Shown here in pieces: positions 7,766-62,364 of a stretch of DNA of 64,000 nucleotides (position 1 is the first letter of the stretch; each line of letters opens with the position of its first letter). The notes beneath the pieces are model-generated. The model saw nothing but the letters and a program-made list of their open reading frames with translations, had not been told where the DNA came from and made no database searches. The position numbers and the translations under genes are program-made. The DNA is from Amphiscolops sp. MND2022 (Eukaryota): the NCBI GenBank assembly GCA_964187785.1, contig OZ076409.1, positions 64,358,001-64,422,000 of the forward strand, written 5' to 3'.

Positions 7766-7959
7766 TCATGAGAAGACTTTCATTTCGCAAATAACAAGAC
7801 CACTGCCTTCGATGGACACCCGAATGAGGTTTCCGATCTTCGGATATCCTGTGAGCACTGTGCACCAATCATCGCCCAGCTTGTTGATTGTCCCAAAGTC
7901 CTCACACAAATACATATCGTTACGACAAACCTCCACTTTAGCTCCAACCAAACCATCGC
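7766..7959 (-). CDS. Gene A terminal coding exon: domain 4 C-half (GDGLVGAKVEVC...LVICEMKVFS*)
   Basis: ttttgtttcag|GC acceptor, TGA stop, 194 nt; same length as and clearly homologous to exon 61554-61747. Confidence 0.9.
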
Positions 7960-10900: not shown

Positions 10901-13900
10901 TTACCTCTGCAACGTTGTCCATCGAACGTTCCAAGTCTGGCATTTGTTATTTGTTTTTCAAAATAGCATTGTTGAGCGACCTGGCACCTAGAGCGATTTT
11001 GACGCTTCTGTCTTTCTCGACAGTGATCACCAATGGTCTATCTCATCCATAATTTTGTCGATCTTTCTAAGGTGGCCAGCCTCGAGTAGACTTTTTGTTT
11101 CTGCATCAACTGCTTGGTGAAGTTGCATGGGAACACGTCTCCTTTTCTGTTGTGTAAATTTCGCCCTTCTCTGAATTTAATATTGATATTATGTCCGACA
11201 ATCCTGCCTTTCCGTCTAAACACGGTAGGAAATTTTTTTCTGTTTTCCTTTTTATTCAGGAACCATTTCGTTTTTTACAATGTTATTTATTTTGGTTTTG
11301 CACTCAATTTCATTTTGAGCTTCTGTTAGTCTGTTAGACGATAGTTGAGTTTTGTTAGCCAGTCTCGACCAACTAGTAACTTCTTCCCATCTCTTGATAA
11401 CACAATTCTTTCACAACGCATCTTTTGTTTGCCCAATTCCTCGTCTACTGTAATATACCCGATCAGGTTGAGTGGTCGTTCATTGTAGTCCACGTACTCT
11501 TCATTTTTGAGGAACAGTCTCGCGAATTTCAAGTCTGCACTCAAGAGTTGGCACAGATCTTCTTCAGTGAATATTGTTATAGGGCATCTCTTGAATCGAT
11601 CATCGTTGAGAACTGCTGCTTGTTTGTTTTTCACTTCAGTACGAACGCCTTCACACCTACCCCATTCACATGTAGCAGAATGTTGTCATCGTCCCATTCT
11701 GAGCTTCCTCTTGATTGGTCGGCCTGTTGTTCAATCAAATTGACTCTTCTCATATTGCTTCTGTTAGTAGTTCTGCCAAACCCACGCGAGTTGGCAACTC
11801 TCGGCCGCTTACACATTCGTGCGAAATGTCCGGTAACTCCACAGTTTCTGCATTTCTCCGTTTTGGCCTTACACAATGCCAGATGAAATTGTGAAAAGTC
11901 CAATTCCACAACGGTTACATGTGTTTCTTGTTTGTCCTCTTTCCACTGCCAATACTGGTTCTTTGATCTCGCTGCCTCCCACGAATTTTTTCTGCTGGCT
12001 AATGCTTTTTTCAAACGCGATTGCAAACCGCAGCGCTTCTTGTGGTTGGGCTTTTGGATCTGTACAAAGACGTTCTTTTACTGGCTTGTTTAGCATGTTC
12101 TGGATAAACGCGTCCATGCTGAGTCCTTCTGCTTGCTCTCCAAACTCGCATTTTGCAGTCAGTCCAGTCCTGTGAGTTTGTTCCAAATCCGTCCCAATGA
12201 TTCATGATTCTGCTGTGCTTGAGCGAAAACTTTTTAACGCTCCAATGTTCTATTCCGTGGCTTGAAAAATGATTGATCACAATTTTCCTTGACTTCTGCT
12301 AACGTCGCTGTGAATACTGTCTTGTATGAGAATTTGTCTGTCAAGTTCTTTCTGCCGGCCATTATCAGTGATAGGAACAGTATGCTGACAACTTTCCGCT
12401 CTGCAGCCTGTTCATTTAAATTGTTCAGAAGTGCTGCCTGTCGCGGGTTGTTTTCTGTAGGCGTTCTGAGTAACTCCGGTACTGATATTGCATGTTTGAC
12501 ATTTGCTGCCGTTACGAAAATTCCCGCCAGTTTTCCTATTCTGCCTTTGCTGGTACTTCCGCGCAATCCCAATAAGCTGGCAGTCCCACCAGAGCTGACG
12601 AACTGCTTGTAGTTTGCTTCCCGCTGGCTTCAAAGGAATTGTCTCGCAGCGCCATGTTATAGCTATGCTGATGAAGAGTTGACAAAACTAATCGAGCTGA
12701 TAACACTGTATTTCATTTGTACCATATGGCAAATGGTCACTCTCACTTTCTGGATTGATACACCTTTTGTTTGCAAGCAACATTACAAAAAAGTGTTCAG
12801 CAACCTGTTTTTTTGACAAAGTCTAGATTAGAAAGTGTTGGAGAGTGCACTCTCTCACACAGAATATGGTCAGAACGGAAGCAAAAAATTTTTTGGTCCC
12901 CAAAGTTATCAGTGTGGAGGCATGAAATTACAGCGAATACCTTGACTTGCAAATTTTACAATTTAAAAAAAAGAAACATCACTTTTTGAAGGAAGAAACA
13001 GCGATCAAGCAACCTCTGATCGTAATCGTAATGAAAGTTCAATTGGCATCTAGAGCGATTTTGACGCTTCTATCTTTCTCGACAGTGATCACCAATGGTT
13101 GGATAAACATCTCATCCGTAATTTTGTCGATTTTTCTAAGGTGGCCATCCTCGAGTAGATTTTTGCATCAACTGCTTGGTGAAGCTGCAGGGGAACACGT
13201 CTCCTGTTCTGTTGTGTAAATTTCGCCCTTATCTGAATTTAATATTGATATTGTGTCCGACAATCCTGCCTTTCCTCTTTAAACACGTTAGGGAAATTTT
13301 TCTGTTTTTGTTTTTATTCAGGAACCATTTCGTTTTTTACAATGTTAGTTATTTTGGTTTTGTACTCAATTTCATTTTGAGCTTCTGTTAGTCTGTTAGA
13401 CGATAGTTGAGTTTTGTTAGCCAGTCTCGACCAACTAGTAACTTCTTCACATCTCTTGATAACACAATTCTTCCACAACGCATCTTTTGTTTGCCCAATT
13501 CCTCGTCTACTGTAATATACCCGACCAGGTTGAGTGGTCGTTCATTGTAGTCCACGTACTCTTCATTTTTGAGGAACAGTCTCGCGAATTTCAAGTCTGC
13601 ACTCAAGAGTTGGCACAGATCTTCTTCAGTGAATATTGTTATGGGGCATCTCTTGAATCGATCATCGTTGAGAACTGCTGCTTGTTTGTTTTTCACTTCA
13701 GTACGAACGCCTTTACACCTACCCCATTCACATGTAGCAGAATGTTGTCATCGTCCCATTCTGAGCTTCCTCTTGATTGGTCGGCCTGTTGTTCAATCAA
13801 ATTGACTCTTCTCATATTGCTTCTGTTAGTAGTTCTGCCAACCCCACGCGAGTTGGCAACTCTCGGCCGCTTACACATTCGTGCGAAATGTCCGGTAACT

Positions 13901-16900
13901 CCACAGTTTCTGCATTTCTCCGTTTTGGCCTTACACAATGCCAGATGAAATTGTGAAAAGTCCAATTCCACAACGGTTACATGGGTTTCTTGTTTGTCCT
14001 CTTTCCACTGCCAATACTGGTTCTTTGATCTCGCTGCCTCCCACGAATTTTTTCTGCTGGCTAATGCTTTTTTCAAACGCGATTGCAAACAGCAGCGCTT
14101 CTTGTGGTTGGGCTTTTGGATCTGTACAAAGACGTTCTTTTTCTGGCTTGTTTAGCATGTTCTGGATAAACGCGTCCATGCTGAGTCCTTCTGTTTGCTC
14201 TCCAAACTCGCATTTTGCAGTCAATCCAGTCCTGTGAGTTTGTTCCAAATCCGCCTCAATGATTCATGATTCTGCTTTGTTTGAGCAAAAAGTTTTTAAC
14301 GCTCCAATGTTCTATTCCGTGGCTTGTAAAATGATTCATCACAATTTTCCTTGACTTCTGCTAACGTCGCTGTGAATACTGTCTTGTATGAGAATTTGTC
14401 TGTCAAGTTCTTTCCGCCGGCCATTATCAGTGATAGGAACAGTATGTTGACAACTTTCCGCTCTGCGGCCTGTTCATTTAATTAGTTCAGAAGTGCTGCC
14501 TGTCGCGGGTTGTTTTCTGTAGGCGTTCTGAGTAACTCCGGTACTGATATTGCATGTTTGACATTTGCTGCCGTTACGAAAATTCCCGCCACTTTTCCTA
14601 TTCTGCCTTTGCTGGTACTTCCGCGCAATCCCAATAAGCTGGCAGTCCCACCAGAGCTGACGAACTGCTTGTAGTTTGCTTCCCGCTGGCTTCAAAGGAA
14701 TTGTCTCGCAGCGCCATGTTATAGCTCTGCTGATGAAGAGTTGACAAAACTAATCGAGCTGATATCACTGTATTTCATTTGTACCATATGGCAAATGGTC
14801 ACTCTCACTTTCTGGATTGATACACCTTTTGTTTGCAAGCAACATTACAAAAAAGTGTTCAACAACCTGTTTTTTTGACAAAGTCTAGATTAGAAAGTGT
14901 TGGAGAGTGCACTCTCTCACACAGAATATGGTCAGAACGGAAGCAAAAGTTTTTTTGGTCCCCAAAGTTATCAGTGTGGAGGCATGAAATTACAGCGAAT
15001 ACCTTGACTTGCAAATTTTACAATTTAAAAAAAAGAAACATCACTTTTTGAAGGAAGAAACAGCGATCAAGCAACCTCTGATCGTAATCGTAATGAAAGT
15101 TCAATTGGCATCTAGAGCGATTTTGACGCTTCTATCTTTCTCGGCAGTGATCACCAATGGTTGGATAAACATCTCATCCGTAATTTTGTCGATTTTTCTA
15201 AGGTGGCCATCCTCGAGTAGATTTTTGCATCAACTGCTTGGTGAAGCTGCAGGGGAACACGTCTCCTGTTCTGTTGTGTAAATTTCGCCCTTATCTGAAT
15301 TTAATATTGATATTGTGTCCGACAATCCTGCCTTTCCTGTTTAAACACGTTAGGGAAATTTTTCTGTTTTTGTTTTTATTCAGGAACCATTTCGTTTTTT
15401 ACAATGTTAGTTATTTTGGTTTTGTACTCAATTTCATTTTGAGCTTCTGTTAGTCTGTTAGACGATAGTTGAGTTTTGTTAGCCAGTCTCGACCAACTAG
15501 TAACTTCTTCCCATCTCTTGATAACACAATTCTTCCACAACGCATCTTTTGTTTGCCCAATTCCTCGTCTACTGTAATATATCCGACCAGGTTGAGTGGG
15601 CGTTCATTGTAGTCCACGTACTCTTCATTTTTGAGGAACAGTCTCGCGAATTTCAAGTCTGCACTCAAGAGTTGGCACAGATCTTCTTCAGTGAATATTG
15701 TTATGGGGCATCTCTTGAATCGATCATCGTTGAGAACTGCTGCTCGTTTGTTTTTCACTTCAGTACGAACGCCTTCACACCTACCCCATTCACATGTAGC
15801 AGAATGTTGTCATCGTCCCATTCTGAGCTTCCTCTTGATTGGTCGGCCTGTTGTTCAATCAAATTGACTCTTCTCATATTGCTTCTGTTAGTAGTTCTGC
15901 CAACCCCACGCGAGTTGGCAACTCTCGGCCGCTTACACATTCGTGCGAAATGTCCGGTAACTCCACAGTTTCTGCATTTCTCCGTTTTGGCCTTACACAA
16001 TGCCAGATGAAATTGTGAAAAGTCCAATTCCACAACGGTTACATGGGTTTCTTGTTTGTCCTCTTTCCACTGCCAATACTGGTTCTTTGATCTCGCTGCC
16101 TCCCACGAATTTTTTCTGCTGGCTAATGCTTTTTTCAAACGCGATTGCAAACCGCAGCGCTTCTTGTGGTTGGGCTTTTGGATCTGTACAAAGACGTTCT
16201 TTTACTGGCTTGTTTAGCATGTTCTGGATAAACGCGTCCATGCTGAGTCCTTCTGTTTGCTCTCCAAACTCGCATTTTGCAGTCAATCCAGTCTTGTGAG
16301 TTTGTTCCAAATCCGCCTCAATGATTCATGATTCTGCTTTGTTTGAGCAAAAAGTTTTTAACGCTCCAATGTTCTATTCCGTGGCTTGTAAAATGATTGA
16401 TCACAATTTTCCTTGACTTCTGCTAACGTCGCTGTGAATACTGTCTTGTATGAGAATTTGTCTGTCAAGTTCTTTCCGCCGGCCATTATCAGTGATAGGA
16501 ACAGTATGTTGACAACTTTCCGCTCTGCGGCCTGTTCATTTAATTAGTTCAGAAGTGCTGCCTGTCGCGGGTTGTTTTCTGTAGGCGTTCTGGGTAATTC
16601 CGGTACTGATAATGTATGTTTGACATTTACTGCCGTTACTAAAATTCCCGCCACTTTTCCTATTCTGCTTTCGGTGGCACTTCCGCGCAATCCCAATAAG
16701 CTGGCACTCCCGCCAGAGCTAACGAACTGCTTGTAGTTTGCTTCCCGCTGGCTTCAAAGGAATTGTCTCGCAGCGCCATGTTATAGCTATGCTGATGAAG
16801 AGTTGACAAAACTAATCGAGCTGATAACACTGTATTTCATTTGTACCATATGGCAAATGGTCACTCTCACTTTCTGGATTGATACACCTTTTGTTTGCAA

Positions 16901-19900
16901 GCAGCATTACAATAAAGTGTTCAACAGCCTGTTTTTTTTGACAAAGTCTAGATTAGCAAGTGTTGGAGAGTGCACTCTCTCACACAGAATATGGTCAAAA
17001 CGGAAGCAAAAGTTTTTATGGTCCCCAAAGTTATCAGTGTGGAGGCATGAAAACACAGCGAATACCTTGACCTGCTAATTTCACAATTTAAAAAAAAAAG
17101 AAACAACACTTTATGAAGGAAGAAACAACGATCAAGCAACCTCTGATCGTAATCGTCAATGAAAGTTCAATTATAACTCCGTAGCGAGAATGATTACAAA
17201 ACTGGTATTTTTGTGACGAAACCGCGGGCACTATATAAAAGTGTATTTGATGCAGTTTTTCTTTTCAAAGAAGATTTGACTAATCTTCTTCGAAATGAAA
17301 AACTATCAAATAAACTGTATCAGTGTGTTCCATTTGAGATCAATTACAGATAAATAAGCTAAGTATGCCAAAACAGGTAATCGTAAATGAGTTTCCCGTT
17401 TTGTGGTGAAAACACTCGAAAACTCCATCATTGTCTGAGATGTGAGATGACTACGATATGTTAACTTGCTGATTGGAGAACCAGATGGATCATAGACAGA
17501 ACCAAAAGTATCTTTCACAGAACCATAGATATCTTTCACCTTGTAAGCATAGAATGTGTCCCCAGCCTATGATTATCTTGTTTACCGTACACATATTTGA
17601 TTTTTTAAAATGGTTTTCCTAGAATCATACTGTGTTCGTTTTGATCAGCCAGTTTTTGTATGAGAGGGACACTCGGTTTGTTTTTCTCATGTGATTGAGT
17701 TTGTAAAAGTAGACGGATTAAGGTCAACAGAAACCAACTTGTTTGTGTCCGTGTCCTTTTGTAATCTTAACCGTTGCTATCATTAGATAGTTTATTAAGA
17801 CACATTTTCTCCCGCTTTTTTCAGTTTTTCTTGAATTTTTAAAAGTATTTTCTTTCAAAAATCATGGTCGGGGAAAATTAACGCTCGTAAAGCAAGCTCG
17901 AAATCAGGGATCTAAAACTAACACCAGAACTTTTCTTCAAACATAGATGTTTTTCTTCTAGAATATCAAAGAGCAACAGTTGTACCCGTGTATTCAGAAA
18001 TGAAGGAAAGCAAGAGGCAATCGGCTATACCCATGGACAAGTATTGAGAAAATCGACTCACCATTGCCTTTCGGGATGATTGCAACCTTTGACACTCTGG
18101 AAGTTTGGGTGAGCATCAATTCAATCCAACCTTTATTGCTGCTTTGAGAAACGAAACAGACATTGTCGCTAACTTTGCGACTCAAGGATCCGTCGAAAAC
18201 GTTTTCGCATTGTCGGGTTTCGTCTTTCACTTTAATTGCTTCGCATGACTGGAACTTCAACGCTTTACCAGCATCAACTACAAACAAGAAAAGGTTTCGA
18301 TGACGTCAAATGAGACAAATAATGACTTTCTTAGATGAAGAAAGAGTTTGTTGAAATTATTCATTTCAGTACTCACCTGTGAATTCGGGACAAACTGGTT
18401 CTGAAAAAGTGTTCAATTGAAACATAATGGAACAAAAGACGAAATTCTTGTGCGAAAAAGTTGAAACATTTTCAGGAAATTTGTCTCTTACTTGGAGTTG
18501 TTGTTGATGACGTTGTTGTTGTTGTTGATGTTGATTTTGTGGTCGTTGTCGTGGTGGTGGTTGTAGTTGTTGTTTTTGGAGCTAAAATTGTTCATAATTT
18601 AATCAAGCCTTTCCAACTGAAACCTACAACCAATGATCAAACTTCACATTTCAAACTTGCTTTGATGGTCAAGTGAGGAATTACAAGTGAGGAAAGTCAT
18701 ATATGCCTACTATATACAGTTGTATAAAAAGGAGTGGATTTTCACTCTAAAACGATTACGTATTGACTGCTTTGAAAATCCCGTCGTAATGTAACCGTTT
18801 GAGTTAATCATAAGTTAATTAATCTGCGGAAAGGTGAATCCAGAAGAAATCAGCGAACCAGAAGCTCACAAAAGATTTCACACGAGTTTTGATCATAGCA
18901 AAGCATGGATGAATCATTCTATTGGCATGGATCATTCTAGCAAGCATGGATGTCTATTGAACCAAAGTTTTGTATACAGAAATCTATTATAAGTAATGAA
19001 AATTCCTGAACAAGATAAGCTGGTAATTCAAACCTCTTCCACTTACCTGTTTGAGTGCGTCTTACCTTTGACGCCAAAAACTTGGACTTCACAGAATGCC
19101 AAAGGATTGCGATTTTGAACAATTTTGATTTCGTTGCCCGTGATGAGATTCTCACATGTGAAATAGACCCATTCGCCCTTCTGGGCCCCTTCCGCGTGTG
19201 TGTCACATTGACTGCAACTTCCACCTTTCTCGCAAATTTTTACAACAACACCCTTGATCTCATTCTCACCTGTTGAAAAAAAGCATTTCCCAGCTATGAT
19301 TTTGTGAGAAGACGGTATACTTGATTGGATATTATTCAACTAAAAAATGACACATTTGATTAAAGCTAACCATAGCTCAGCAGCTTAACTCTGGATACTT
19401 TGGACCTCGGAATATCGAGGAACGCTATCTGGCCAGAAGTTCCACTAGAGCAGTAACAGGTGCTTGGGGTCTCCTGGGCTCCTTCGATTGAATACCCGTT
19501 CTCTAATTTCAAGTCGCTACTTTTGGGCTTCGACGAAGATCCACCAGTTATATAAATTTGCCCTGAACAAAAAGTTTCACATGATGTCCTCCACAGATGT
19601 TTCAAAGACAAAATCGAATATCAGCTCAGTATATTTGTCGAAACTTTGCCTGCTCAATTTCAACATTTCTCAACCGAACGAAGCGTGAATTATTTTTTCT
19701 CAATTTCGAAAAAAAACTCATCCTTTTTTGTTCGATTAGTTTTCTAAATGCTCCATCTTCCAATCCGGGTTAACCCTCCATGCAAGTCGTAGAGCGACTG
19801 TAGTACAATCATGTCCCCATCACGCCCAAATTTCAGTCAAGATTAAGCTAGGATTAGTACTACGATAAGCGTGACGTCGTTGTGAAATCTTAGTTCGGAA

Positions 19901-22900
19901 CAAAACTTGAACTTAATTCTAGAGCGGAACGTACCCTGGTGCTAAGCGCGCTCATTGGTTTCAATTTTCACTGATAACTTTCCAGAATAGCAACTTACCA
20001 ATGACGTCATTGCCTGATTTCTGTTCTCCCCGAACTTCGATCTCGCAGAAACTGAGATGATTGGCGCTGTTTTGTTTTATGAAGATTTGGTTCCCTTCTA
20101 CACTTTGGGCGCAGTGGTAAATAACCCATTCGCCTTGTGTCACATCGTTTGATTGACCTTCGCAAGATTGGCAAGACTTCCCGTTTGTACAAATGCTCAC
20201 TGCCACATCGGTCATGTCAGGTGAACCTGGTAAATGGAACATGAATTCATTGGAAAAGCTGACTGGAAGCTGAAATATCTAGAACAATGGCCTTTTTTGT
20301 GATTCAAGATGCAGAGGTATCAACCCCGATGCTCTTAACTACTCAAATACTTTTAAAAACGTACAGAAACCGATTGTTGTCGTGAAGCATGGCGTTTATT
20401 CGAGTTTTATTCGGTTTATAAATCTTTGCGAATATGCCCCGAACCGATAAAAACCGAATGTGCCCCAAAATATTGGATAAACAGTCCTCACGAGAGCGAA
20501 TGAAATAGAAATTAAATTACATTCATTCATCATGATTTATTTTTTCACAGCGGAACAGATAGTGTAACGAGTGATATAGGGGAAGGGGGCATAGTGAAAG
20601 AGATCCCTGCCTCCTTCCAAGACGCTTTGCTTCCCTATACATCTACGTTCGTTAAAAACAAGCGCTAAATCAGCCGTGGCACATCGCTCTGCTCCGCTCC
20701 ATTCGCTCCGCTCGGCTCCATTGATCAATTGATCAAATATACGCAATGATGAGCTTTAGCCAATCAGATTGATTTCCATTTAAAGAAAATGAAAACTTGT
20801 GTTTAGTGAAGAAAACCAAGTTTTATTTTATTTGCTCTTATGGTGTTTGAGAATCCATCCGAAACACTTTGCTTCTACGCAAAAAACTTCTGCTGGCATT
20901 AATTTTGTGTTGTTGATGAGATCTTCGTTCTGATGTGAGCCTCTAACCTGTGTATGTTGTCTCGTATTGGCAGTTGTCGTACACCCATTGGTAAAATCTG
21001 TAAGCACAAACCCGTGTTTCCGTCGGTTCGCCAGCTGAAAAATTTAGAAATGCATGAAATAAACCAGAAATATACCAGACTAGATTTAAATCGATGCATA
21101 AAACCGCACCTGGGCAATATTATCCTTCAACAATTCTGTGATTAGCGTTTAATTTTTTTAAACGTTCGAATGTTTGAATGTGTATCCTCGTTCCTCGGAG
21201 CGCTTCCCTAACAGTCAATGTTCTAGAATTTCCCCCTGAACCGATTTTAATATTCATTAAATCTTCGTTTGAAATTGTGAAATTGAGCAATTATTTTTTT
21301 TCAATCATTCTGCTGCTACCCCCAAAATTCAACGGAAATCTCAAGTGAGCACGGTCCCTGGCTTACTCACCGGATGCCATAAGTTTGACTTGGCGAACTT
21401 CAGAATGAGGAATGTCGAGCATTGCATGAGGGTATTCAGTTGAACTTGACTCGTAGCAGGTGTTTGGAGTTTGACTTTCTCCTTCTTTCGTGTACCCTGC
21501 CCTCAATCTCTTGTCGTTTCCAGACGCAGGCGAGGCTATTCCGTCATATATAAAGATGCCTTGGCCTGGAAGCAATGATAATAGAGTTCTCAATGCGCTC
21601 ATAATTGGCATAATTGGGAATAATCAAAGCTTTCGGAATTGTTTTTGTTCTGAGCACGTAAAAACATACAGGTATTGATAGTTAATTTCAATTTAAGAAT
21701 CGTATCTCATGTATCGAGAAAGTTGGTCATATTTTGGCAGGCACTGGATATCTGTGACGGGTATTCAAAACGAATTATACAACTAAAACAACACAGAAAC
21801 AAATTCAAGTAATCTAGTTGCAACAAGTTCATAATCGATCAAAAGCATAGCGAAAATTCTGTTTTCCGGTCAATTCAAATTCCTCAAGCCAATATTTGTC
21901 AACCAAGTCGATAATCTTGTAATATCAGTTGAGGATCAAAGCAAAGAACTTCAAAACCCCAACGGTACCAGAGAACGTTGCTATTTTTAGGGCATCAGCC
22001 TTCATTCCACTTTTTTGACAATGTTTAATCTAATTTTTGTCCTGGATCTAAGTGCAAGTACTGTGCAATGTGAAATTGTTCATCTAGAATAGGGGAAATT
22101 AGCAAAATAGATACCGTATTGAGCATCTTCATCGCAAGCTATGTCAATTTCACAGAAGGCCAGGTTGTTGCTATCGTGGACCACCTTTATTTGGTTGCCC
22201 TTGATTGCGGTGCCACAGACGAAATATGCATACCCATCTTCCTCCACTTGGTTTGCGGGAGAACCACATTGGCTACATTTGCCTCCATTGGTGCACACTT
22301 GAACGACTGTTCCAATCATCTCGTTATCTGACATAAAATTATTCTCATTCACAAGTGCTAAACCGCAATGCATCTGTTCATTATTTCAGGAGCTCATACG
22401 CCCAAACATTGGCATTGAGCACGGAATTAGGTAAAACGCAAGATTCATATTGCACAAAGTATCCAAAAGCATCAATTCGCAATTCCTCTCAATAAACCCT
22501 GGAAAACATGTTAAATTATGTATTGCACTGCGAACCAAAGCTGAAAAATTATCACTGGTTATAATCAGTTAATTTAGTAGTTAAGAAAAGTTGAGTGTTT
22601 TCGACAAATCGAAAATTGTCGATCTACTTACCGATGACTAACTCTTAGGGCTCAAGAATATTATATTCACTGCGAACTGGCGGAAAAGATGCCAAAATTG
22701 AAAAGTTTGACCATTTTGTTCATTTCATCCTTTTTTTCCAACGAAAACAATGAATGCTTTCTCTAAACAAGAATATGCTTAGAACGATTGTTTTGATATT
22801 TAACTCCACGGAAACTCGTAACAACTACAGCGTCCAGAAATTGTAAACCAATTGCATAAAATTGTCGAAAAATTCAAAAAAAGAAAAAATTCATTTTCGT

Positions 22901-25900
22901 CATATCGGCGGGATGATTTTCAAACATTAAGTTTCTTTGGGCATCTTTCGGATGCTAAATCCCATCAAGAAGCTGTCAGAATCTGTTCGCAGCCAAGTGA
23001 TAAAATTTTTACCGACTTCAAGCTTGGCTCTCAATGTGATTTGCGGAATGTTATACAGGTCTGAGTTCTCACAATTGCTCTTTATATTTTGCGTTTTCTG
23101 CAAAATGTGTTTTTGTCACAATGAAGGAATAAGTACGTGCTCAAACAACAAGAGTGGTGAAATGTGGATGTTTGAACTTGATATCGCAGAAATAGAAGCC
23201 GAATCACTACTTTCATGTTCACACAAAGTTGAGAAATTGCGGGATTATTTATTGCTTGCAAAAAAAAGAAAATTTTCTTACAAAATTTTGATGGGAAATA
23301 GTTGTTTATTCGTTCAATTCTGGAAAGATTTATGCTCACAAAAAATCCAGGAAAATGTACAAAAAGCAACAATATTTGCTTCAAGTTTCTTTACGATATA
23401 CACCCTGGTGAAAATTTTGGGGCAAAATGATTTCAGTTATGCAGCGTGATCTGTTTAATCTGTAAAAAGACCATTTATTATTTGTCAGTCAAGGCTGTCG
23501 GTCTATTCTTTGGTGTAACTGTCTCAACGAGTGTAATGGGAAACAGTGTAAACTAATCAAGGGGCGTAGTTAGCATAAAATGGAAGTTGGTCCGAAAAAA
23601 AAACAACTTTCCGTATTCCAGACAAACTTTGATTATTTTCAAAGGATAGCGATCCCCAATTTGCAATAAGTGGAATTTTGTCAAAGCCTGACTAACTTAC
23701 ACGAGTTTATTCATTGAACATTCAACGTTCAATTCAATTCCAATTCAATCCATCACATCCTAGAACAGTCACGTTAAACAAGGATTCATTGAATAATTAG
23801 TCAATATTACGTTATTAGACGACTGCATTGCCCACGTGTATATTATCCATGCATCATACGTGCAATGTGTGCTAGGTATGCAACAAAAGGTTTGGATGAT
23901 CATACCCAAAACATTCGTGTTGTACAAAACATGCTTAACACGTTTGAGACTTGAAAAAAAAACATCCTAGATTTTCATCAGATGTTCCGACAAAGTTTCA
24001 AACACCAAGAGTCCTGAGTCCTATATTTCTTCTAAAAAGTGTGTTATGATGCTGTTTGTTTCACCGATGAATTCTGTAGAAATTCTAGCCTTTCGAATAC
24101 TTCAAAACATATACAAGAAGCACAAAAACTTTTCGGAAAGTAAAACAAGCCGAGAACGGCCAATGTCGGCGCAATATCTAAGGCTCAAAAAGTGCAAAAT
24201 TTTCAAAATATGCTCATGACGTTTTTTTTATAAAAAACTCACAAAAAAATTCACCCAAAAGAAGCCTTCCGTGCTGGGAAAACGCTTCAGAAGTTCGGAT
24301 ATAGCGGCTGGGACAAATGCGAGCACTTGATTTTGAACCTCCGCCTCCTCCTCAGTAAAACGGAATATACTTCGGAAATAACGTCAAAAATTCGGATAAA
24401 GCGGTTTACTCCGGATATTACGGTCAAATTTCGGATAGTATTTAAAAAAGTATTGGTGGATATGTATTGAGAAAACCTAATAACCGATGAAAAATGACAA
24501 TTTTGAACAGTCTCATAGTGCCGAAAAATCTGAAAGGGGGGACGCTTTGGGAATTTCAAACATCTATTATGTTCTAAAATATCAAAAACATTGAAGGGGG
24601 ACCCTTTGGTACAATCAAAAAGTTTTCGAAAAAGTCTCATAGTGCCGAAAAAAATCCAAGTTAAAATCACCCAGATAGCTAACGTGGGGATCCTTATTTG
24701 TTTTCGAGTTTCTGGACGTCGGTTTTATAATTTAGATGAGATTCTGGGGTTTGCGGTATGATTTGGTCAAGTTGAACAAATGAACAAAAAAGTGGACCTT
24801 ACGCGAGTAAAAAAAACTACCCACTGTAAGTGTCGAGCACGTTTTCTACTAAAAAGCGCCCACTAAAAACAGACTTTTGGGGGTCGTTTCGGAAACACCT
24901 CTTTCATATGAATGCCATGTTGTTGGTACGAACTTTTTCTATAGTACTTGAATTGTGCGTAGAAGGACGACCCTCTATCATTTGGATGAATTTTACCCCT
25001 GTGGAGCACAGTATCATAGTATTATATCTGCTTTTAACTTTCATGTTGAATAATAGCAGTCTATCTGGAATAACTATACACTTCTCTTTGATCATTATAT
25101 AGCGCACAAAACATCACAGTACCTGTTTACACCGCCTTTTATTCTTCTCGCACTAAAGGAAATATAACTACTGAGCGCATACGAGTTTCGCATTCGCATT
25201 TGAGGCGAAGCTCTCGGCGAACAAATAATTAACACTCATTCGCCTCATCCTGATGAATTCGGCGTACGGATGAATAATTAACACTCGCTCTCTTCATCGC
25301 ACAAGAATTGAATAAGCTAACTATCGTGGGCCTCTAGAAACATTTAAATCTCACACTTGTACTCACTGCCGAACAAATTATCTAAATCTTTTTCAGTACG
25401 CACTTAACTAACATACTCGACTGAAAACAAACAAAACTTCTCCTTCAGGTTTCTGTATTATTCTTGCTATCGCTGAAATAATAAAATTTGAACATGGCAA
25501 AATAAATAAAAAACGCGGCTCAGGTAATAATTTTCATTTTCCATATGAATGATTAATGGGCGAAAATCATTCAAGATCTCTGTTTTCGTTAATAATATAA
25601 TTATTACAAAATGCAGACATGCTTTTAATGAACCGAGTTGTTCAGTTTTGACTTTAAATAACACCAATCCTTAAACTGTTGTAATTTTGAGAGTCACATC
25701 TGCCCGGTAGAAACAATATCTTGGCCTTGTTTTCTTTTTGAATCACACTAGTTGTGCCAAATCAAGAGACGGAATGAATTCTTAATGAGCATACTTAGGA
25801 CATACCAATGGTGGTTGTTTCGTAGTGACAGTATTTGTAATCATAATCATAAGAACACACAAGTGTTTGTTCCGTTTTCGATTCACCAGCTAAAACAATT

Positions 25901-28900
25901 CAAAGATGAAAATAAACAAAACACAGGCTGATAAGCTAAAGAGCTCTTGAAAAATTTGGTTAGAAAAGTTTTTAAAAAATCAGCTTTCTGGGGTCTCAAG
26001 GACCATGTACAACTTCTCTGGCTCGAAGATCTCTCGAAATCAAGCTGAAGTGGTGAAGTATACGTGAATATCGAAGTCAATTAGCAAAATTTAATTCAAC
26101 GTCTTTAATTTATTTTGAAAAACTTCTCGAGTTTTCTGCATTTTTGCTAGCATTGTATTAACTAGCCAGAGCTTTCACGATGTAAATTAGGTTCTATCAC
26201 GGCAACAAAAAGAAAACAAAAAAGAAAAGGTTGCTTTCCGAATTTCAGTGCCGAAGCTAGCAAGCAAGGAACTATTTTTGCAATTTTTGCAAACAAGTGA
26301 TGAAGCACTAGTTGGATTGTTGCTGCGATTTCGAAATGGCTGGTTCAAAGAATTGAATGATCACCGCTGCTGTTTTCATTTTACATTTTCATCGAATGTT
26401 TTGCTTTGGGTTGAAGAAATCATTGAAAGCTCGACTAAGGGTTATATAAATTGAAGCCTACTTTTTGACAACACAAAGGGAAGTTTCTAAAAAACTCAAA
26501 CTTAATTCGCTGGAGAATGATCAACCGTGAGATCCACCAAAACATACCGCGAATTGGAAATTTGAAATATATTTTGAATAACAAAATGTCGATATTGCTT
26601 CCGTCGGTATTTTTCCATTAGGTGTAATGATGCCGACATCACCCTAGCTTTTGAACAAGCGGTACTTTAAATCGCTTTTAAACTTTTCGTTCGAGCTTTC
26701 AAAATAATATCTCTGAAAAACCCGTAACTTTAAATAGTTGATGAGTTTAAGTTTTTTAAAAAAATGCTAAGAGGCTGAAAAATATAGTATACCTGGGGAA
26801 ACAAGCAAAGATTCCAAAAAAAAGAAGACATAGCATGAACATGGAGATTTAAGTTTGATATTGAGTCAAACTCCGATAGAAGCTCTTTTCCTGCTTATTT
26901 TGTAGCACCCACTGAAGAGCGTGTTTCATCGTATATTGTCTGGTTTGTTTTTCGGAGAAGTTAACTAGACAGTGGCAAAAAAACAAAAAATTGAATTGCA
27001 ACCATGGTTGATAACTGAGTCTTCAATAATGATTTTATTAGTATCTTTATGAGATTTTAGAAAGGTTAGCTGATGACTTTCAATGCTTCGAACGGGGTCA
27101 GAACCTGGTCTTCGAACACTGTGTAGTAAAATTGATATCATACCTTGAAAGCCTAAAAGTGCTTACCGCCATAACTCAAAAGCCTGACTCGTTTGACATC
27201 AGTTACGGGGATGTCCAGATAAGCATACTGGTTAGAACTTCCTTCCGAGTAGTAGCAAGTATCAGGCGTCTGTTTTTCTCCCTCCTTCGTGAAAGCATTG
27301 TTCGCCAAGAAACTGTTACCCCATGCCTCCGACGCTCGTATACCAGTGGCATAGACCCGACAAGCTGAAGGATTTACATTATTCGATAAGGGTTTTTCCT
27401 CAGAGTTCATGCAGGTCTATCAAATGTTTATTGTTTGGGTAATGTATTTGAAGAAAAAAATCAAATTATTGAAAAAACCATCGTAATGCGACAGTTCTAG
27501 TAGGGGATAGCAGCAATAACTCATATCAATTGACAACTCATACCAATCGAAATTCGTACTACAAAACTAAAATCCCTAAGATCAAAAAGACAAGCAATTG
27601 CTCAAAATCATGACCACAAATCTAGATAAAATAGTTATTCGATAGGAAATTAGTAAAGTTTATGAAATACTAACATGATTTTGTGGTAATTACCGTTGCA
27701 TTAGAAATTAATTTAACTATCACACTTAGTTTGAAAGGTTTGCATAGAAGTAGAACGTAGGCGGAGCTCATAAAATCGTACAACAATTCCAAATAAGATT
27801 TAGAAGTTTCAATTGCAGCTATTTATTTCAAGTTTTTCAAGTAAACATTTCGTACTTGGAACTTTTCACGTGATATGAGTTGTCGCTTGATTTGAGCGTT
27901 TGATTGCTTTAAGTTGTCGCTAAACCGAAAAATTGTGTCTCTTCGGTTTACTTTCCAGATGAACTCTTTTTCCAGATGTAATTTTTTGCGTAATCATTTG
28001 TCTCCATTTGAAAACTCTCGCAAAAGTTGTAAGATAATGCATTGAATTGAAATTACCTGATTCCCACTGCTCAGTAGTTGAGTACTTGGTAGTAGTAGAA
28101 GTCGTAGTAGAGGTTGTGGGATCTAGAGAAAAAAGTTCATAATACGTTTTTTAGTTAATCTAAACTAGTTAAAAATGAGAATAGTAAACATTACAATCAA
28201 ACTTGATGATTCATTTGATTCTTCAAGTTCGAACGGAGTTTGCAAAAATTCCTCAGAATTCTTTCTTCTCTTTTCCTCAGAAATTTCTTCTACGCCAAAA
28301 GTGTCGTTCAGTTAAATTTTCAAACTCAAAGTGCTCAGCGATAAATGTCCTGTCGAAGTTCCGTTGTCAATGTTTACCTTTCAAGGAAACTGCTTTATTT
28401 CCACACAAACATAGTTGTTCAAAACAATTGGGTGAATCGAAGTAGTATCCCGATCCTGTCCAGTCAGACAGTTGCAAAAGGCATTTTTTCAATGTATATC
28501 ATCAAACGATAACCATTTTTCACTACTAAAGATTTACAATACAAACATCAAAAATAAATTTTTGTCATAGAGGGAAAAATCACTAATATGGTAATAATAA
28601 AGTTTCTGAACAAAATACGGAGCATGTGTAATACTTGAATTTCGCGCGTTCCTAAGTATATGCAAGTAGACGGGTGACTGACTCTGAGGTGCATATGGAC
28701 TGCATCAAAAGCATTTTTTCTCATTTTCTCTACATTCACAGCAAACGATACACCATTTAGAATGGCTGAATAGAAGAAACTAGCAAATAGACTCAGACTG
28801 TTCAAACAATTCGATGAAGCTACAATAGTTGAAGTATTCACAACAACAAGTACAATGGACCACAGAGATTGAGATTTGAAAGCAGCAAAAGGAGGTATGG

Positions 28901-29272: not shown

Positions 29273-32200
29273 AGACAATGGGTTATTCTCATAGAACTCT
29301 ATCCAATTATAATAACTTGTCCCACCTCACCTAAACATGCCCTCGCATATTAGGATCCTCAGCATTTTCCAGTTAATGGTGCACATTTTTACCCAGACTC
29401 AAGGAGGAAATTAGGATGAAAAACCTTTCAACAATATGTTTCCAACCACTTATGAGGGAAAAGTTGGATGATATTCAATGGTTTCCATGTTTTGAGACTT
29501 GTAATATAAAAATTTTCAGAGTAACCCAACTTCACATGTTTAACAATCGGACTAACCATCTGGCCATGGTAATAGTCCGAGGTTGGCGGTCTTAGTTCCA
29601 ATCATTAGCCCATGTCCTAATTAACTTTACTCCCAAGCTTCAAGTTTCTACCTATCATTGGTTTCGAGAAATGTAATGTTAAAAGTGATCAAACAGCAAA
29701 ATGGCAATTGAAAAACACTCAAGTGAAAACTTCCTATATTTCGGCTTTCACTGTTGAACATGTAGAGATTACGAAAACTCAAGAAAAAAGACATAACGCA
29801 GCAACATATGAGCTACAACAAAGTATACATTACGATTAAAAAGGTCCTAATTTGGGCTATTTATCTGGATAAGTTTCGAAAACCTACACCGGAATTATAC
29901 CAACATGGAAAAACCTGAAACCCTTTAACATGCAGAAGCTATGAAAGAGTCAGAAACACCTACATGTGATACATCATTTGAAAGATCTTGAGTTGGAAAT
30001 GAAAACTTTTGAACATTTTCATGATCGGACACCTTCCGCTGAAACAAGACCATCTCAAAGCTGAAATCCTTGAACATGTAGAGATTAGAAAAGTTCCAGA
30101 TATTACTGTGTATGATATTTCATTGGAGAGGTCTTGAGTTGGTTATCACAGATTTCAAATAATTTCATAATCGGACATTCACAGCATGAACTATTCCATC
30201 TCAAACCAGAAACCTTGAACATAAAGAAACTATAAAAGTTCATGAGTACACAACTGTGTATTACACTTCATTGGAAGGTTCTTGAGTCGAAGATAACAGA
30301 TTTTGAATATTTCGATGATCGGACATTTTCAGCTGGAACTATACCATCTAAAACTTCAAACCCCTAAATATGTAAAAGTATAAAGTTAAGATTGTCGTAA
30401 GTATATCTTTGATAAAACAAAACATTTCCAAACAAAAACGTCAACAAAGTAGCCAGCTGAATCAACAAGGTGAACAACATAGTAACACATAGTAACAAGC
30501 TGAATCAACAATCTCAAGAAGTGGGAAGAACTGTGAATGAAAACACATGAACAAAACTAAAAATGAAACCGACTGATGAAATTAAAGAATGCATTGCAGA
30601 TGAATTGCTAAGTAAACGTTAGTTCCCCGATAAAACTTTCAATTGAGTTGTTTAGCTAATTGTTCAGTAAACGTTATTGGAGAAGAACAGTTGTTCCACA
30701 AATGATTAAAAAAAATTTGAATTACTATCGTAAGGATCAAATATTACTGATGGAGAAATTAATGATGAACAGTTGGAAGGTTCAGGTTTTGTTTTTCAAA
30801 AAAAGGAGTCAATGAAATTCAAGCTAATTCTTGGGTTGAGTTACGCATAAATATAAAAAATTTTAGTCATTATTATTCATCGAAATTAAAGATCATTTCT
30901 GTTTTCTGAGGTGAATATCAGTTCATCTTTACCCGGTTGAGACTCATCAAAATAAAACATCAAATTATTCCAAAATTTTGTCTGAACTAAATACAGCAAA
31001 GTTAGTACTCCCAATAAAACCTAAAGATTTACCCCGGTTTGAATAATTAAACAATTGGAAATTAAATGCTTTTGAGTTCATTAAAACAGTGCTAACATCA
31101 AACCATATCATTACAAACTATGACTAACCACAAATTGATATGCAGTTATATGAAAATCACTACTGTCTAGTAACAAAATTACACACTCTCCAAAAATAGG
31201 ATTCGCGTCAGAAACATGTATGTAGAAGATGTTTACCAGCATTTAGGTCAGCAGACACCCTGAATGATCATATTGAAAGATGTATAAAACAGCCGTAACT
31301 AAGATTGGTTTTAGTTAAAATGATCATCTCACATTTAACGACTACCAGATGAAATAACCAGTCCCAAGTTGAGGTATGTAGACTTTGAATGTATGAACCA
31401 ACCTCAAGATAACCCCAAAGTGAAATTCACACAACATCCGATTGCTGTTGGTTATTTTATATTATCATCATTTGGAAATCATTGTTACTAAAATTTTGAG
31501 AGACGGGCTTGTGTGAATTGATTTGTAAAGAGGATGTGTTACAGTGCTTGGATACAAAACAACTGTAATATGGATGAAGAATGTATTTTAAATGTGGCAA
31601 TGTTAAATGAATTGTAAGTAAATTATTGACGGAGTATTTTAGACAACAGCAGGGGTCCAATTGAACGTATGAATTCAACAATGCTTTTGATTGGTGTTTA
31701 CTAATACGTCTAGCATCAGATGACCTTTCAGCACATTATTACAGGATATTAGAATCAGAAAAACTCTCTAAAAGTATTTCAATCCAAACATTCCACTGCA
31801 ATTAACTGCCCAAAAAGAAACACAATTCCAAGAAACGAATTGGGGTTAGTTTCGGGAGACGTTTTTTTTCATTGGATTGTGATAGATAAAGCTCGAGATC
31901 ATGATCATCCAACAGAAAATACAGAGGAGCAGCTCATAATATTTGCAATCACAACTGTATGCAAAATGTTCATTTTTTGTTCCTAAATGTTTTCCTAACT
32001 TTTCTGGTTATGATAGTCACTTATTTTTGAACAACTCCTAACCGAATCAAAACTATAATTAAATGACAATACCTAAGAGTTTAGAACTTCATGCACCAAT
32101 CCAAGTAGTATTTTACCGTTTCCTGGACAATCATAGATTTCTTGATAATTTTAAGTACATGGAATCCGAGGGTTTAATTGATGGTTTGTTTAAGAAACCC

Positions 32201-53200: not shown

Positions 53201-53633
53201 AAATTTTTTTCTTGCAAAAAAGTCTCACCATGCCGAAAAAAACCTTTAGTCTCGCTCGGTGATGTATGTTACGCGGTAAAAAAGGAAAAACATTTTTGGT
53301 TCAGTTTTCTGGGCCAACAGGTACAATTTGGCGCCTTAAAATTCGTACAACTTTTGGTAGAAGTATTTTGGTCACTTCAGGTGTATCGAAAAAAAAACAC
53401 TGACGAAAAACCATGAGTTTATTTGACTCTTTTCTGAAGAAGAGCGCTGACTAAAAATTGAATCAAATCAGAAAAACTGCAACAAAAGTAAATAAAATGG
53501 GCGGATTAAGCACAGGACTATTGAAGTATTGTAACGCTGAACTTCACAACTATTAGATACTGATTTCCAAATACTACTAACTGATGCAGGAAACAAGGAT
53601 AACGATCTTGGCGATTCCTGAAACAGAGATCAT
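7766..53633 (-). CDS. Gene A (whole span): secreted multidomain protein with signal peptide, Cys-loop module, Thr-rich linkers and four F-type lectin/discoidin-like domains, ~677 aa, 14 coding exons
   Basis: Manual exon chain on minus strand: 53582-53633, 52628-52702, 28057-28122, 27167-27364, 22115-22327, 21371-21565, 20948-21034, 19999-20226, 19371-19562, 19066-19269, 18492-18581, 18377-18400, 18062-18277, 7766-7959. All introns are GT-AG and phase 1. Total 2034 nt, open to TGA at 7766-7768. Each domain ends in an L-x-x-C-E-h-x-h motif typical of F-type lectin domains. Linking the first two exons across the 24.5-kb intron is inference. Confidence 0.75.
8780..9870. repeat. Degenerate ~180-bp tandem repeat array inserted in the Gypsy element
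   Basis: ctc(a)..actga...ata....cc and taggctacatttt-like motifs recur near 8858, 9032, 9207, 9387, 9569 and 9758. Confidence 0.65.
10008..10387 (+). mobile_element. Short interspersed repeat family A (Helentron/DINE-1-like non-autonomous element)
   Basis: Begins tttttagtcggcg, ends ggcgccaactt + gggccg-tttc-cggctc hairpin + gtt; subterminal inverted repeat plus 3' hairpin; several copies in the window. Confidence 0.6.
10982..17172. repeat. Tandem triplication, period 2062 bp
   Basis: Units start at 10982, 13044 and 15106; equivalent ORFs recur at 11326/13388/15450 and 11631/13693/15755; the same junction gaaagttcaat-tggcatctagag occurs twice. Confidence 0.97.
18062..18277 (-). CDS. Gene A exon 13: domain 4 N-half (VDAGKALKF...VFDGSLSRKVSDNVCFVS...GWIELML...VSKVAIIPKGN)
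   Basis: tttgtag|TT acceptor, G|gtgagt donor, 216 nt; ungapped ~60% aa identity to exon 62149-62364. Confidence 0.9.
18377..18400 (-). CDS. Gene A exon 12: 24-nt microexon (K)PVCPEFT
   Basis: tttttcag|AA acceptor and consensus ACAG|gtgagt donor; phase 1-1. Confidence 0.7.
18492..18581 (-). CDS. Gene A exon 11: mucin-like poly-Thr linker (APKTTTTTTTTTTTTKSTSTTTTTSSTTTP)
   Basis: attttag|CT acceptor, A|gtaaga donor, 90 nt; ACN codon run with varied third positions. Confidence 0.8.
19066..19269 (-). CDS. Gene A exon 10: domain 3 C-half (GENEIKGVVVKICEKGGSCSQC...LAFCEVQV)
   Basis: ttttcaacag|GT acceptor, AAAG|gtaaga donor, 204 nt. Confidence 0.85.
19371..19562 (-). CDS. Gene A exon 9: domain 3 N-half (GQIYITGG...TPSTCYCS...FLDIPRSKVSRVKLLSY)
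   Basis: ttgttcag|GG acceptor, G|gttagc donor, 192 nt. Confidence 0.85.
19999..20226 (-). CDS. Gene A exon 8: domain 2 C-half (GSPDMTDVAVSICTNGKSCQSC...LSFCEIEV)
   Basis: ttaccag|GT acceptor, G|gtaagt donor, 228 nt. Confidence 0.85.
20948..21034 (-). CDS. Gene A exon 7: 29-aa Cys-loop insert in domain 2 (AGEPTETRVCAYRFYQWVYDNCQYETTYT), possible cassette exon
   Basis: Strong acceptor aatttttcag|CT, donor ACAG|gttaga, 87 nt, phase 1-1, open frame with a Cys pair; no counterpart between the halves of domain 3. Confidence 0.6.
21371..21565 (-). CDS. Gene A exon 6: domain 2 N-half (GQGIFIYDG...TPNTCYES...LDIPHSEVRQVKLMAS)
   Basis: cttccag|GC acceptor, G|gtgagt donor, 195 nt. Confidence 0.85.
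22115..22327 (-). CDS. Gene A exon 5: domain 1 C-half (NEMIGTVVQVCTNGGKCSQC...LAFCEIDI)
   Basis: tgtcag|AT acceptor, G|gtatct donor, 213 nt; homologous to exons at 19999-20226 and 19066-19269. Confidence 0.85.
24145..24870 (-). mobile_element. Repeat family A copy (reverse orientation)
   Basis: aacaagccgagaacggc..gtcggcgcaatatctaaggctc ... gcgcccactaaaaa; reverse complement of family A ends. Confidence 0.65.
27167..27364 (-). CDS. Gene A exon 4: domain 1 N-half (ACRVYATG...TPDTCYYS...YAYLDIP...VKRVRLLSYG)
   Basis: cttcag|CT acceptor, G|gtaagc donor, 198 nt; homologous to exons at 21371-21565 and 19371-19562. Confidence 0.85.
28057..28122 (-). CDS. Gene A exon 3: Thr/Ser-rich linker DPTTSTTTSTTTKYSTTEQWES
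   Basis: Acceptor ttttctctag|AT, donor G|gtaatt, 66 nt, phase 1-1. Confidence 0.75.
29236..29268. repeat. (GA)n microsatellite
   Basis: Run of ~16 GA units. Confidence 0.95.
29925..30375. repeat. ~147-bp degenerate tandem repeat, ~3 copies
   Basis: atcggaca at 30024, 30170 and 30318; tcttgagt and ccatct.aaa recur with the same period. Confidence 0.75.
30760..33670 (+). pseudogene. Protein-primed family-B DNA polymerase (pPolB) remnant
   Basis: Fragments across frames: EQLEGSGFVF, YENHYCLVTKL, HVCRRCL..F...TLNDHIERC, YVDFEC, ARDHDH..YRGAAHNICN, NFSGYDSHL, KMDVLLVTDI, LDADNSYGWTVSQLLP, QLQYMNTDNF (YxDTDS-like), QSKSY. Confidence 0.85.
34665..34899 (+). repeat. Repeat family B copy carrying a tRNA(Gly-GCC)-like pseudogene (34781-34850)
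   Basis: A box TGGCACAGTTGG, anticodon arm tgc-CTGCCAG-gca, B box GGTTCGAACCC; acceptor stem does not pair; 3' tail shared with 2681-2716. Confidence 0.65.
37230..37740 (-). pseudogene. Polinton-type retroviral-like (rve) integrase remnant
   Basis: AEKLFSPV...KYNENYMFIF, EWVIPLPNKSGTTTTQSF.NLI..KRKHNKMWFDRCTKF, LKQNEIQIY - resembles the W-x-x-PLKNK...KLWxDxGxEF pattern; disrupted. Confidence 0.75.
38240..38720 (+). pseudogene. A32/FtsK-like DNA packaging ATPase remnant
   Basis: Degenerate Walker A RTVLVGCSICGE, Walker B-like CVIILDML, FFTGGRLNDLDVFLLQTYFEIP, then MSYDELKSLCRDTW. Confidence 0.72.
40364..40630 (-). pseudogene. Polinton-like minor capsid (penton)-type C-terminal remnant
   Basis: KVHLKCDCVDGS...ILFSF...PRGF...LFYEKINKTRLNKIQFFLEDSNYDPVDFNDVSLTFT; identification from remembered motif shape only. 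Confidence 0.5.
42300..51210 (+). mobile_element. Degenerate BEL/Pao retrotransposon split by a nested Gypsy element
   Basis: gag with CAACKVKHPLLRC / LCCLC / HTRFLHG knuckles to ~43270; resumes at 48770 with protease VLAVCDSACNQSW, LPLG..LSGP, YLHHPVVHPHKPG, GGFKLTK, SSDNPAD, NTGIDYFGPFYV and terminal RPIVELDP. Confidence 0.87.
43294..48769 (+). mobile_element. Two-LTR Ty3/Gypsy element, degenerate, with 5-bp TSD
   Basis: LTRs 43294-43500 and 48558-48769 (TG...CA); PPT poly-G at 48545-48557; TSD GTTGC/GTAGC; LMGLDWM, RT ILDFDYAYEQ and WLDDII, RNase H YAINELELLAVVWGLEH, integrase GHP...CEECVPC and IRTDND. Confidence 0.92.
51211..51494 (-). mobile_element. Inverted BEL/Pao integrase fragment
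   Basis: VEQILNSRPLVPVS...DPLT / NHFLLG motifs on the minus strand abutting the plus-strand BEL end. Confidence 0.75.
52628..52702 (-). CDS. Gene A exon 2: (S)QAAAGTNWKCDYYPDYYADYCANK, aromatic-rich two-Cys loop
   Basis: Acceptor atttatag|GT, donor G|gttaga, 75 nt, phase 1-1, no stops; completes the signal peptide. Confidence 0.6.
52985..53457 (-). mobile_element. Repeat family A copy in intron 1 of gene A
   Basis: aacaaaccgggaacggcttcaagtcggcgc...tcaaggctc ... gcgctgactaaaaa ends. Confidence 0.62.
53582..53633 (-). CDS. Gene A exon 1: signal peptide MISVSGIAKIVILVSCI
   Basis: ATG at 53633 with an in-frame upstream TGA; hydrophobic stretch; donor A|gttagt. Joined to exon 2 it reads MISVSGIAKIVILVSCISQAAA-GT, a plausible signal-peptidase site. 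Confidence 0.6.
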
Positions 53634-61553: not shown

Positions 61554-61747
61554 TCATTCAAAAACTGCGATTTCGCAGATGACCAGATTGCTGTGTTCGA
61601 TGGCAACGCGAACCATGTTTCCAGTCATAGGCTCTCCTGTAAGCACAGTGCACCAATCCTCGCCAAGTTTTTCAATAGTCCCAAACTTCTGACAGTCATA
61701 CTGATCGTTTGTGCAGACTTCCACATCAGCTCCTATCAAGCCCTCAC
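61554..61747 (-). CDS. Gene B terminal coding exon, F-type-lectin-like domain C-half (GEGLIGADVEVC...LVICEIAVFE*)
   Basis: tttgtag|GT acceptor, TGA at 61554-61556; 401-bp phase-1 intron to the previous exon. Confidence 0.88.
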
Positions 61748-62148
61748 CTACAAAACAGATCCAGTAAATAGTAATTGGTAACATTTATTGGCCTAAACCC
61801 ATACAAAGACTATATTTTTAAAATAATATCAAATATTCATAATTGGATCAACTTTTGTTAATTATTAAAGTTGAAATAAATAGTAATACTTCCCTTCCGG
61901 ATTATTTTCGATTTAAATATTTCCAAGACGCCTCGTCTTCTAGTGCGACAATTTTGTAATAATTTTTTGGGAAACTACTGTAAGTGTTAATTTTACAGGG
62001 TTTAAATTTCCTCTAAACCCGCCTTTATGAATGAACATTGAATTAGATGAACAGATGGATTATTTTTGTTAATCGTCGTCTAAAGCATCTTTAAATCCTA
62101 CGCATGTGCTTGAAGAAGAAAACAATGCAATTGTAAGAATCTGCTAAC

Positions 62149-62364
62149 CATTGCCCTTAGGTATGATTGCGACTTTGGAGATATCGGCTGTTTTTGCCAG
62201 CATGTACTCAACCCATCCCTTTTTGCTACTTTGGGACACGAAGCAGGAGTTGTCCTTGACCTTCCTACTTAGGTTTCCGTCGTAGGAGCTAACACATCCC
62301 ACAGTACCTTCTTTGATCTTGATGGATGTACACGATGCGAAGGGCACAGCTTTGTCGTTATCGG
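62149..62364 (-). CDS. Gene B (tandem paralogue) penultimate exon, F-type-lectin-like domain N-half
   Basis: ctttcag|CC acceptor, G|gttagc donor, 216 nt; DNDKAVPFASC...YDGNLSRKVKDNSCFVSQSSKKGWVEYML...ISKVAIIPKGN. Upstream exons probably lie beyond the window. Confidence 0.88.

Follow-up and report, generated by a model that had tools for sequence, protein, structure and literature searches.

The DNA analysed here, referred to as the window, is a stretch of 64,000 nucleotides (G000:C1:64358001-64422000) from an animal-type genome of 1.07 Gb, and positions below are those of the window unless they carry the G000:C1 prefix. Gene Y lies on the minus strand and reads, in order, as a threonine-rich exon, three related domains of two exons apiece (A and B), a threonine-rich linker and a divergent fourth domain with a stop, and its neighbours on the same strand are paralogue X upstream and paralogue Z downstream. 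The parts of gene Y are as follows.

53582..53617, minus strand: candidate hydrophobic signal-peptide micro-exon of gene Y (36 nt, putative)
28057..28122, minus strand: threonine-rich exon 5' of domain 1 (66 nt)
27167..27364, minus strand: domain 1 first half, exon A1 (198 nt)
25806..25889, minus strand: homologous insert exon of domain 1 (84 nt, phase 1-1, peptide GESKTEQTLVCSYDYDYKYCHYETTTI, C-x8-C)
22115..22327, minus strand: domain 1 second half, exon B1 (213 nt)
21371..21565, minus strand: domain 2 first half, exon A2 (195 nt)
20948..21034, minus strand: insert exon of domain 2 (87 nt, phase 1-1, peptide GEPTETRVCAYRFYQWVYDNCQYETTYT, C-x11-C)
19999..20226, minus strand: domain 2 second half, exon B2 (228 nt)
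19371..19562, minus strand: domain 3 first half (192 nt); the next intron, of 101 nt, is free of inserts
19066..19269, minus strand: domain 3 second half (204 nt)
18492..18581, minus strand: threonine-rich linker exon (90 nt), with a 24-nt exon next at 18400-18377
18062..18277, minus strand: domain 4 first half, divergent terminal type (weak F5_F8_type_C_2 match, E 0.028)
7769..7959, minus strand: domain 4 second half, terminating in a stop, with no transmembrane segment following in the exon

The 10-kb last intron of gene Y holds approximately three tandem 2-kb copies (around 10200-17100) of a broken fragment, which we take to be retroelement-like from the zinc-knuckle and protease-like frames in its open reading frame text. 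The gap between the candidate signal exon and the first domain holds a degenerate AT-rich stretch (around 29500-41500, 29-34% GC) and, after it, broken retrotransposon-like frames (around 42500-51500). The terminal domain of gene X, paralogous to domain 4 of gene Y (second half 68% identical), also lies within the window (61557-62364, minus strand).

Paralogous domains were collected from 438 candidates, of which 150 were scored to give 129 matches and 113 half-pairs, 108 of these with full ends. The family is much expanded, with at least 128 two-exon F-type-lectin-like domains in the DNA examined, found on C1, C2, C3, C8, C9, C11 and others and forming tandem arrays on C3, C9 and C11. No single exon of gene Y reached the cut-off against Pfam, and the F-type jelly-roll fold was found through natural spliced homologues rather than through gene Y's own domains: homologue P0005 matches both 3CQO (striped bass MsaFBP32) and 1K12 (eel agglutinin AAA) and aligns its NRxDCC to eel agglutinin and MsaFBP32, the best PDB match of the P0031 model is 3CQO (E 9.8e-11), and the Atlas matches are FTL clusters. 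The homologues thus match both lectins by sequence and 3CQO by fold.

In 108/108 domain pairs an intron of phase 1 fits at one shared point, a check that sought phase-1 sites only, with low scores at a few sites and with many of the pairs being nearly identical tandem copies (78 distinct donors). NRxDCC stands immediately 5' of this intron in 28 of the 108 domains, although the residues adjoining it are otherwise highly variable across the family (NRxDCC, NYPSGY, SYS and others). In the lectins to which this motif aligns, R79 and D81 lie within CDR4, on the binding face (PMC5712786). The initial annotation had placed the intron of domain 2 in the R-x-D-CC-x-x-R sugar-binding loop, and this placement was correct, as follows from the NRxDCC before the intron in paralogues, the alignment of a homologue to eel agglutinin and the position of R79/D81 in CDR4.

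The sugar-binding motif itself has been lost from these domains. The fucose motif HX24RXDX4(R/K) is absent from domains 1-3 of gene Y, and in the domains of the X-Y-Z cluster the loop is shortened and lacks the R, D, CC and R, with no His, so that there would be no fucose site left for an insert to modify. Among the 108 paralogous domains, the R-x-D..R part was seen in 32 and the whole motif in 1. The cation motif h2DGx was not seen, as judged by eye, where it would be expected in the six cluster domains, which read G-Y/F-T/S-x-x-G at that point. On their sequences, the cluster domains would best be described as F-type lectin-like scaffolds that lack the fucose motif.

Within the domain 2 intron, the 87-nt phase 1-1 exon was confirmed in its coordinates, borders and phase as initially annotated (21034-20948, acceptor tttcag, donor gttaga), and domain 3 indeed has no equivalent, as its short intron holds neither insert nor remnant. 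Symmetric phase, a length that is a multiple of three and canonical splice sites are all present. With splice and coding models trained on the 108 paralogous domain pairs, this insert came top of the 52 phase 1-1 candidates that cleared the 10th percentile of splice scores across 156,657 nt in the 108 homologous introns. Its coding score was matched by 0.4% of 5,256 stop-free intronic windows and falls on the 25th percentile of real coding windows that had been held out. In these respects the domain 2 insert acts like a genuine exon. The initial annotation had also stressed that the reading frame is kept on both inclusion and skipping, which is true in both respects but not special, since 12/12 annotated internal exons of gene Y are phase 1-1 with lengths that are multiples of three, and frame preservation of the insert is therefore no sign of a cassette. 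A separate feature of this region is an in-frame alternative acceptor 36 nt 5' of exon B2 (20262, minus strand), which scores 7.6 compared to 5.1 for the annotated one and whose 12 extra residues look non-coding.

A local search with the domain 2 peptide found a relative of the insert in the domain 1 intron (25889-25806), which was absent from the initial annotation. This copy had fallen outside the general splice scan because its donor is slightly below the cut-off and its coding score is negative (-5.8). The two inserts match at the DNA level with a score of 67.5, compared to 13.0 +/- 6.4 in 1,000 shuffles (maximum 34.5), and their protein-level score was reached by 0/10,000 shuffles, whereas the 100 nt flanking them on each side are similar only at shuffle level. 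Amongst 3,468 open phase 1-1 frames (60-120 nt, 128 gaps) the domain 1 copy was the best match, scoring 41 compared to 19 for the next. Twelve residues are identical between the two inserts, with different codons at 6/12, and the divergence between the copies (40%) is similar to that between the host halves (45% and 31%). Both retain the two cysteines, an A-G-E opening and a Y-E-T-T closing. The domain 1 intron also contains a 60-nt phase 1-1 frame (25472-25413, minus strand) with very high splice scores of 11.0 and 9.0 and a negative coding score, possibly a pseudo-exon.

These observations bear on whether the inserts could be relics or pseudo-exons that are never spliced, with the domains made in their short ancestral form. 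Pseudo-exons with good splice scores are common here (52 in 157 kb) and the negative coding score of the domain 1 copy would fit such a reading, but conservation that is limited to the exon, goes no further than the splice sites, holds the frame over gaps and includes synonymous changes between decayed flanks is hard to obtain without selection on the peptide, and so we consider this very unlikely. Exon-confined conservation, synonymous change and decayed flanks point instead to selection on the peptide and are the main reason for calling the exon real; the homologous copy in domain 1 is the strongest proof that the domain 2 insert is an exon.

Gene X probably carries a two-cysteine exon in the same CDR4 intron (G000:C1:64431376-64431299, 78 nt, phase 1-1, C-x11-C with aromatics, coding score 14.8). 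It cannot be aligned with the Y copies, so its support consists of its splice and coding scores. In gene Z, the two mid-domain introns contain no insert and no remnant, and an 87-nt phase 1-1 exon with two cysteines, five Tyr/Trp and strong splice sites lies 5' of the first domain (G000:C1:64331748-64331662, minus strand). Neither this exon nor the gene X insert showed significant homology to the two Y inserts (protein p 0.12-0.79). The second-half exon of gene X is further split by an extra phase-0 intron of around 3.5 kb (G000:C1:64430978-64427265), and the first half in gene X is longer by 7 residues in the loop past a conserved C-Y.

In line with the initial annotation, the inserts could be cassettes, included independently in domains 1 and 2 to give up to four binding faces per gene. 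Joining exons A and B directly gives a normal short loop equal in length to that of the insert-free sister domains (those of gene Z and domain 3), related domains carry different exons in the same intron, and the intronic donor parts of the three inserts are weak (scores of 5.0-5.5 compared to a median of 8.3, near the 10th-13th percentile), all of which speaks for a cassette, the short loop and the weak donors also counting against routine inclusion. However, the donors are strong once exonic bases are included, with U1 matches at 7, 6 and 7.5 of 9 positions that equal or exceed those of 76-100% of the 78 constitutive donors (all from one homologous intron), so that the outcome reverses and the argument that a weak donor means a cassette was dropped. 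The phase 1-1 form is the default of every annotated internal exon, and each intron holds a single insert with no arrays of alternatives, in one cluster only, and thus we regard regulated inclusion as somewhat unlikely. Dscam-like mutually exclusive arrays have several alternative exons within one intron. No array of this type was seen in the three carriers, where a scan of exons of at least 12 nt found one two-cysteine insert per intron.

Alternatively, each insert could serve as a last exon, its donor left unused, so that an early stop would yield short products with the cysteine loop at their end. A stop does lie 1-8 codons past each of the three donors, but stops are expected after donors in AT-rich introns, gttag donors are frequent here, the product would stop halfway through a beta-barrel and all three retain a GT donor in phase 1, making this extremely improbable. 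Routine inclusion of the inserts is our preferred reading.

A filter of two cysteines plus three aromatics was run over 128 gaps (263,829 nt) and returned 4 candidates in the sense phase-1 frame, which were the three inserts (two in Y, one in X) together with one weak frame from a gap of 25 kb. In the five control frames the counts were 8, 1, 3, 3 and 12, and this range of 1-12 two-cysteine aromatic frames arising per control is a further point in favour of the relic explanation. As the filter was designed after the exons were known, it is no proof of the inserts and shows instead that such inserts are uncommon elsewhere in the sampled family. Inserts of a different composition would escape such a filter, but general splice and coding scans of the homologous introns likewise gave no other strong insert candidate. 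The suggestion that paralogues might hold other exons at the same intron was thus borne out insofar as further exons exist, but they are convincing in just 3/128 introns, all in one cluster.

DNA, peptide and intron searches for further genomic copies of the inserts returned only the inserts themselves or repeats, the short-peptide search being insensitive in that it missed the domain 1 copy. Genome peptide pattern 1 gave 7 matches compared to 6 for its control, and pattern 2 gave 3 (the two inserts and one C7 site) compared to 3. Three protein searches for longer (spliced) proteins from these genes found none, and a metagenome scan found a single unrelated bacterial-looking locus. P0157, the only protein these searches retrieved, was discarded as a product of these genes, since it is a domain-3-like frame without splicing for which this genome has no near match.

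The idea put forward in the initial annotation, that the insert diversifies the sugar-binding site, was not supported, as the host domains are without the fucose motif. Their confinement to one gene cluster argues against a family-wide CDR-like swapping system. A related and bolder proposal is that a pool of short phase 1-1 cysteine-loop exons (three in the CDR4 introns of three domains, the fourth 5' of the first domain of gene Z) acts as plug-in hairpins that have moved between introns and are splice-switched to give combinatorial, antibody-like faces on a lectin scaffold without its former sugar site; this we consider unlikely.

In a tree of 22 domains, the closest grouping of Y domain 1 was to Z domain 1 (91/82), while the X domain, Z domain 2 and Y domain 2 formed a group of their own (100/99). 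Monophyly of the two Y carriers was rejected (AU p 0.0003), as was that of all three carriers (p 0.002), and a quick 108-row tree agreed with the smaller one, from which 86 rows had been omitted. The insert was therefore either ancestral to the cluster and lost from the Z domains and domain 3, or copied between Y introns long ago. Derivation from a piece of exon A or B was also considered and was not established, as the copies match different parts (best p 0.007-0.08 in some of 16 pairwise tests; 0.018 and 0.036 in 12 profile tests).

With its insert, the loop of domain 2 would reach around 42 residues by count, compared to 11-31, mostly 16, in 220 domains of 46 homologous proteins. Both domains of P0031 (Logan), a natural two-domain homologue, have Tyr/Trp-rich extensions of the same loop, of 30 and 20 residues, and the Tyr-rich 30-residue loop indicates that aromatic extension of the CDR4-equivalent loop has occurred elsewhere. 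A structure model made for an isolated 31-residue peptide from a two-row alignment (one relative), and not for the domain, predicts strands at residues 5-12 and 22-29 joined by a 9-residue tip (mean pLDDT 71, pTM 0.29), and a symmetric register in this model would place C11 opposite C23. The initial annotation had foreseen a disulfide-closed aromatic loop, and a hairpin with its cysteines opposite one another is indeed what is predicted for the isolated peptide, while the disulfide itself is inferred. The tip differs between the two Y copies in length and sequence, and the conserved residues form the stalk.

Taken together, these results lead us to favour, with a probability of about 0.6, an old extra exon in the CDR4-loop intron of two F-type-lectin-like domains which is routinely included and adds a protruding binding hairpin. 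The exon would likely be spliced in routinely, adding 28-29 residues as a protruding beta-hairpin pinned by one putative disulfide and tipped with Tyr, Phe and Trp. This hairpin may rise from the former sugar pocket and offer its aromatics to a protein or glycan. As the host domains lack the His-Arg-Arg fucose triad, it would supply a replacement binding surface, on what is probably a secreted, Thr-stalked multidomain protein.

Known F-type lectins are reported to have tandem domains of two exons each with phase 1 introns (PMC12221842), and gene Y likewise has tandem two-exon domains with phase 1 introns. According to PMC5712786, F-type lectin indels fall mostly in CDR loops and the mid-domain intron of MsaFBP32 lies at the bottom of the barrel, whereas the gene Y intron interrupts CDR4, on the binding face, and carries an extra exon. 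Gene Y further differs from F-type lectins in lacking the fucose motif and in the length of its loop. Another parallel is the sperm bindin of the Pacific oyster, for which the same source describes F-type domains diversified by a mid-domain intron that varies, some isoforms without the His-Arg-Arg triad, recombination within the intron and splicing in or out of whole repeats (PMC5712786). The variable mid-domain intron and triad loss are shared with gene Y, but the extra exon inside the domain has no counterpart in the bindin description consulted.

In the bovine ultralong CDR H3, a beta-strand stalk holds a disulfide-bound tip off the binding face (PMC5994613, PMC12371982). The likeness to the gene Y insert is one of working principle, with a different fold and no homology, and the bovine loop is somatically diversified with several disulfides, whereas the insert is a fixed exon of the germline and has two cysteines. 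In the acoel Isodiametra pulchra, fucolectins are markers of epithelial and secretory cells (PMC8097308). No description of an extra exon in the CDR4 of an F-type domain was found in the literature covered, which was mostly open-access texts. What appears to be new, on sequence grounds, is thus an extra exon within the CDR4-equivalent loop of F-type-lectin-like domains.

The insert exon is a variation on known F-type lectin diversity and not a demonstrated diversification system, and its present reach is two genes in one genome with a putative binding role. It offers a natural example in which a recognition domain without the ancestral sugar site has gained a new exon in its binding loop, with insert-free sister domains adjacent to serve as controls for how exon gain may convert a lectin scaffold to a new class of ligand. 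If the exons proved skippable, they would add a further mechanism to the known invertebrate ways of diversifying F-type lectins.
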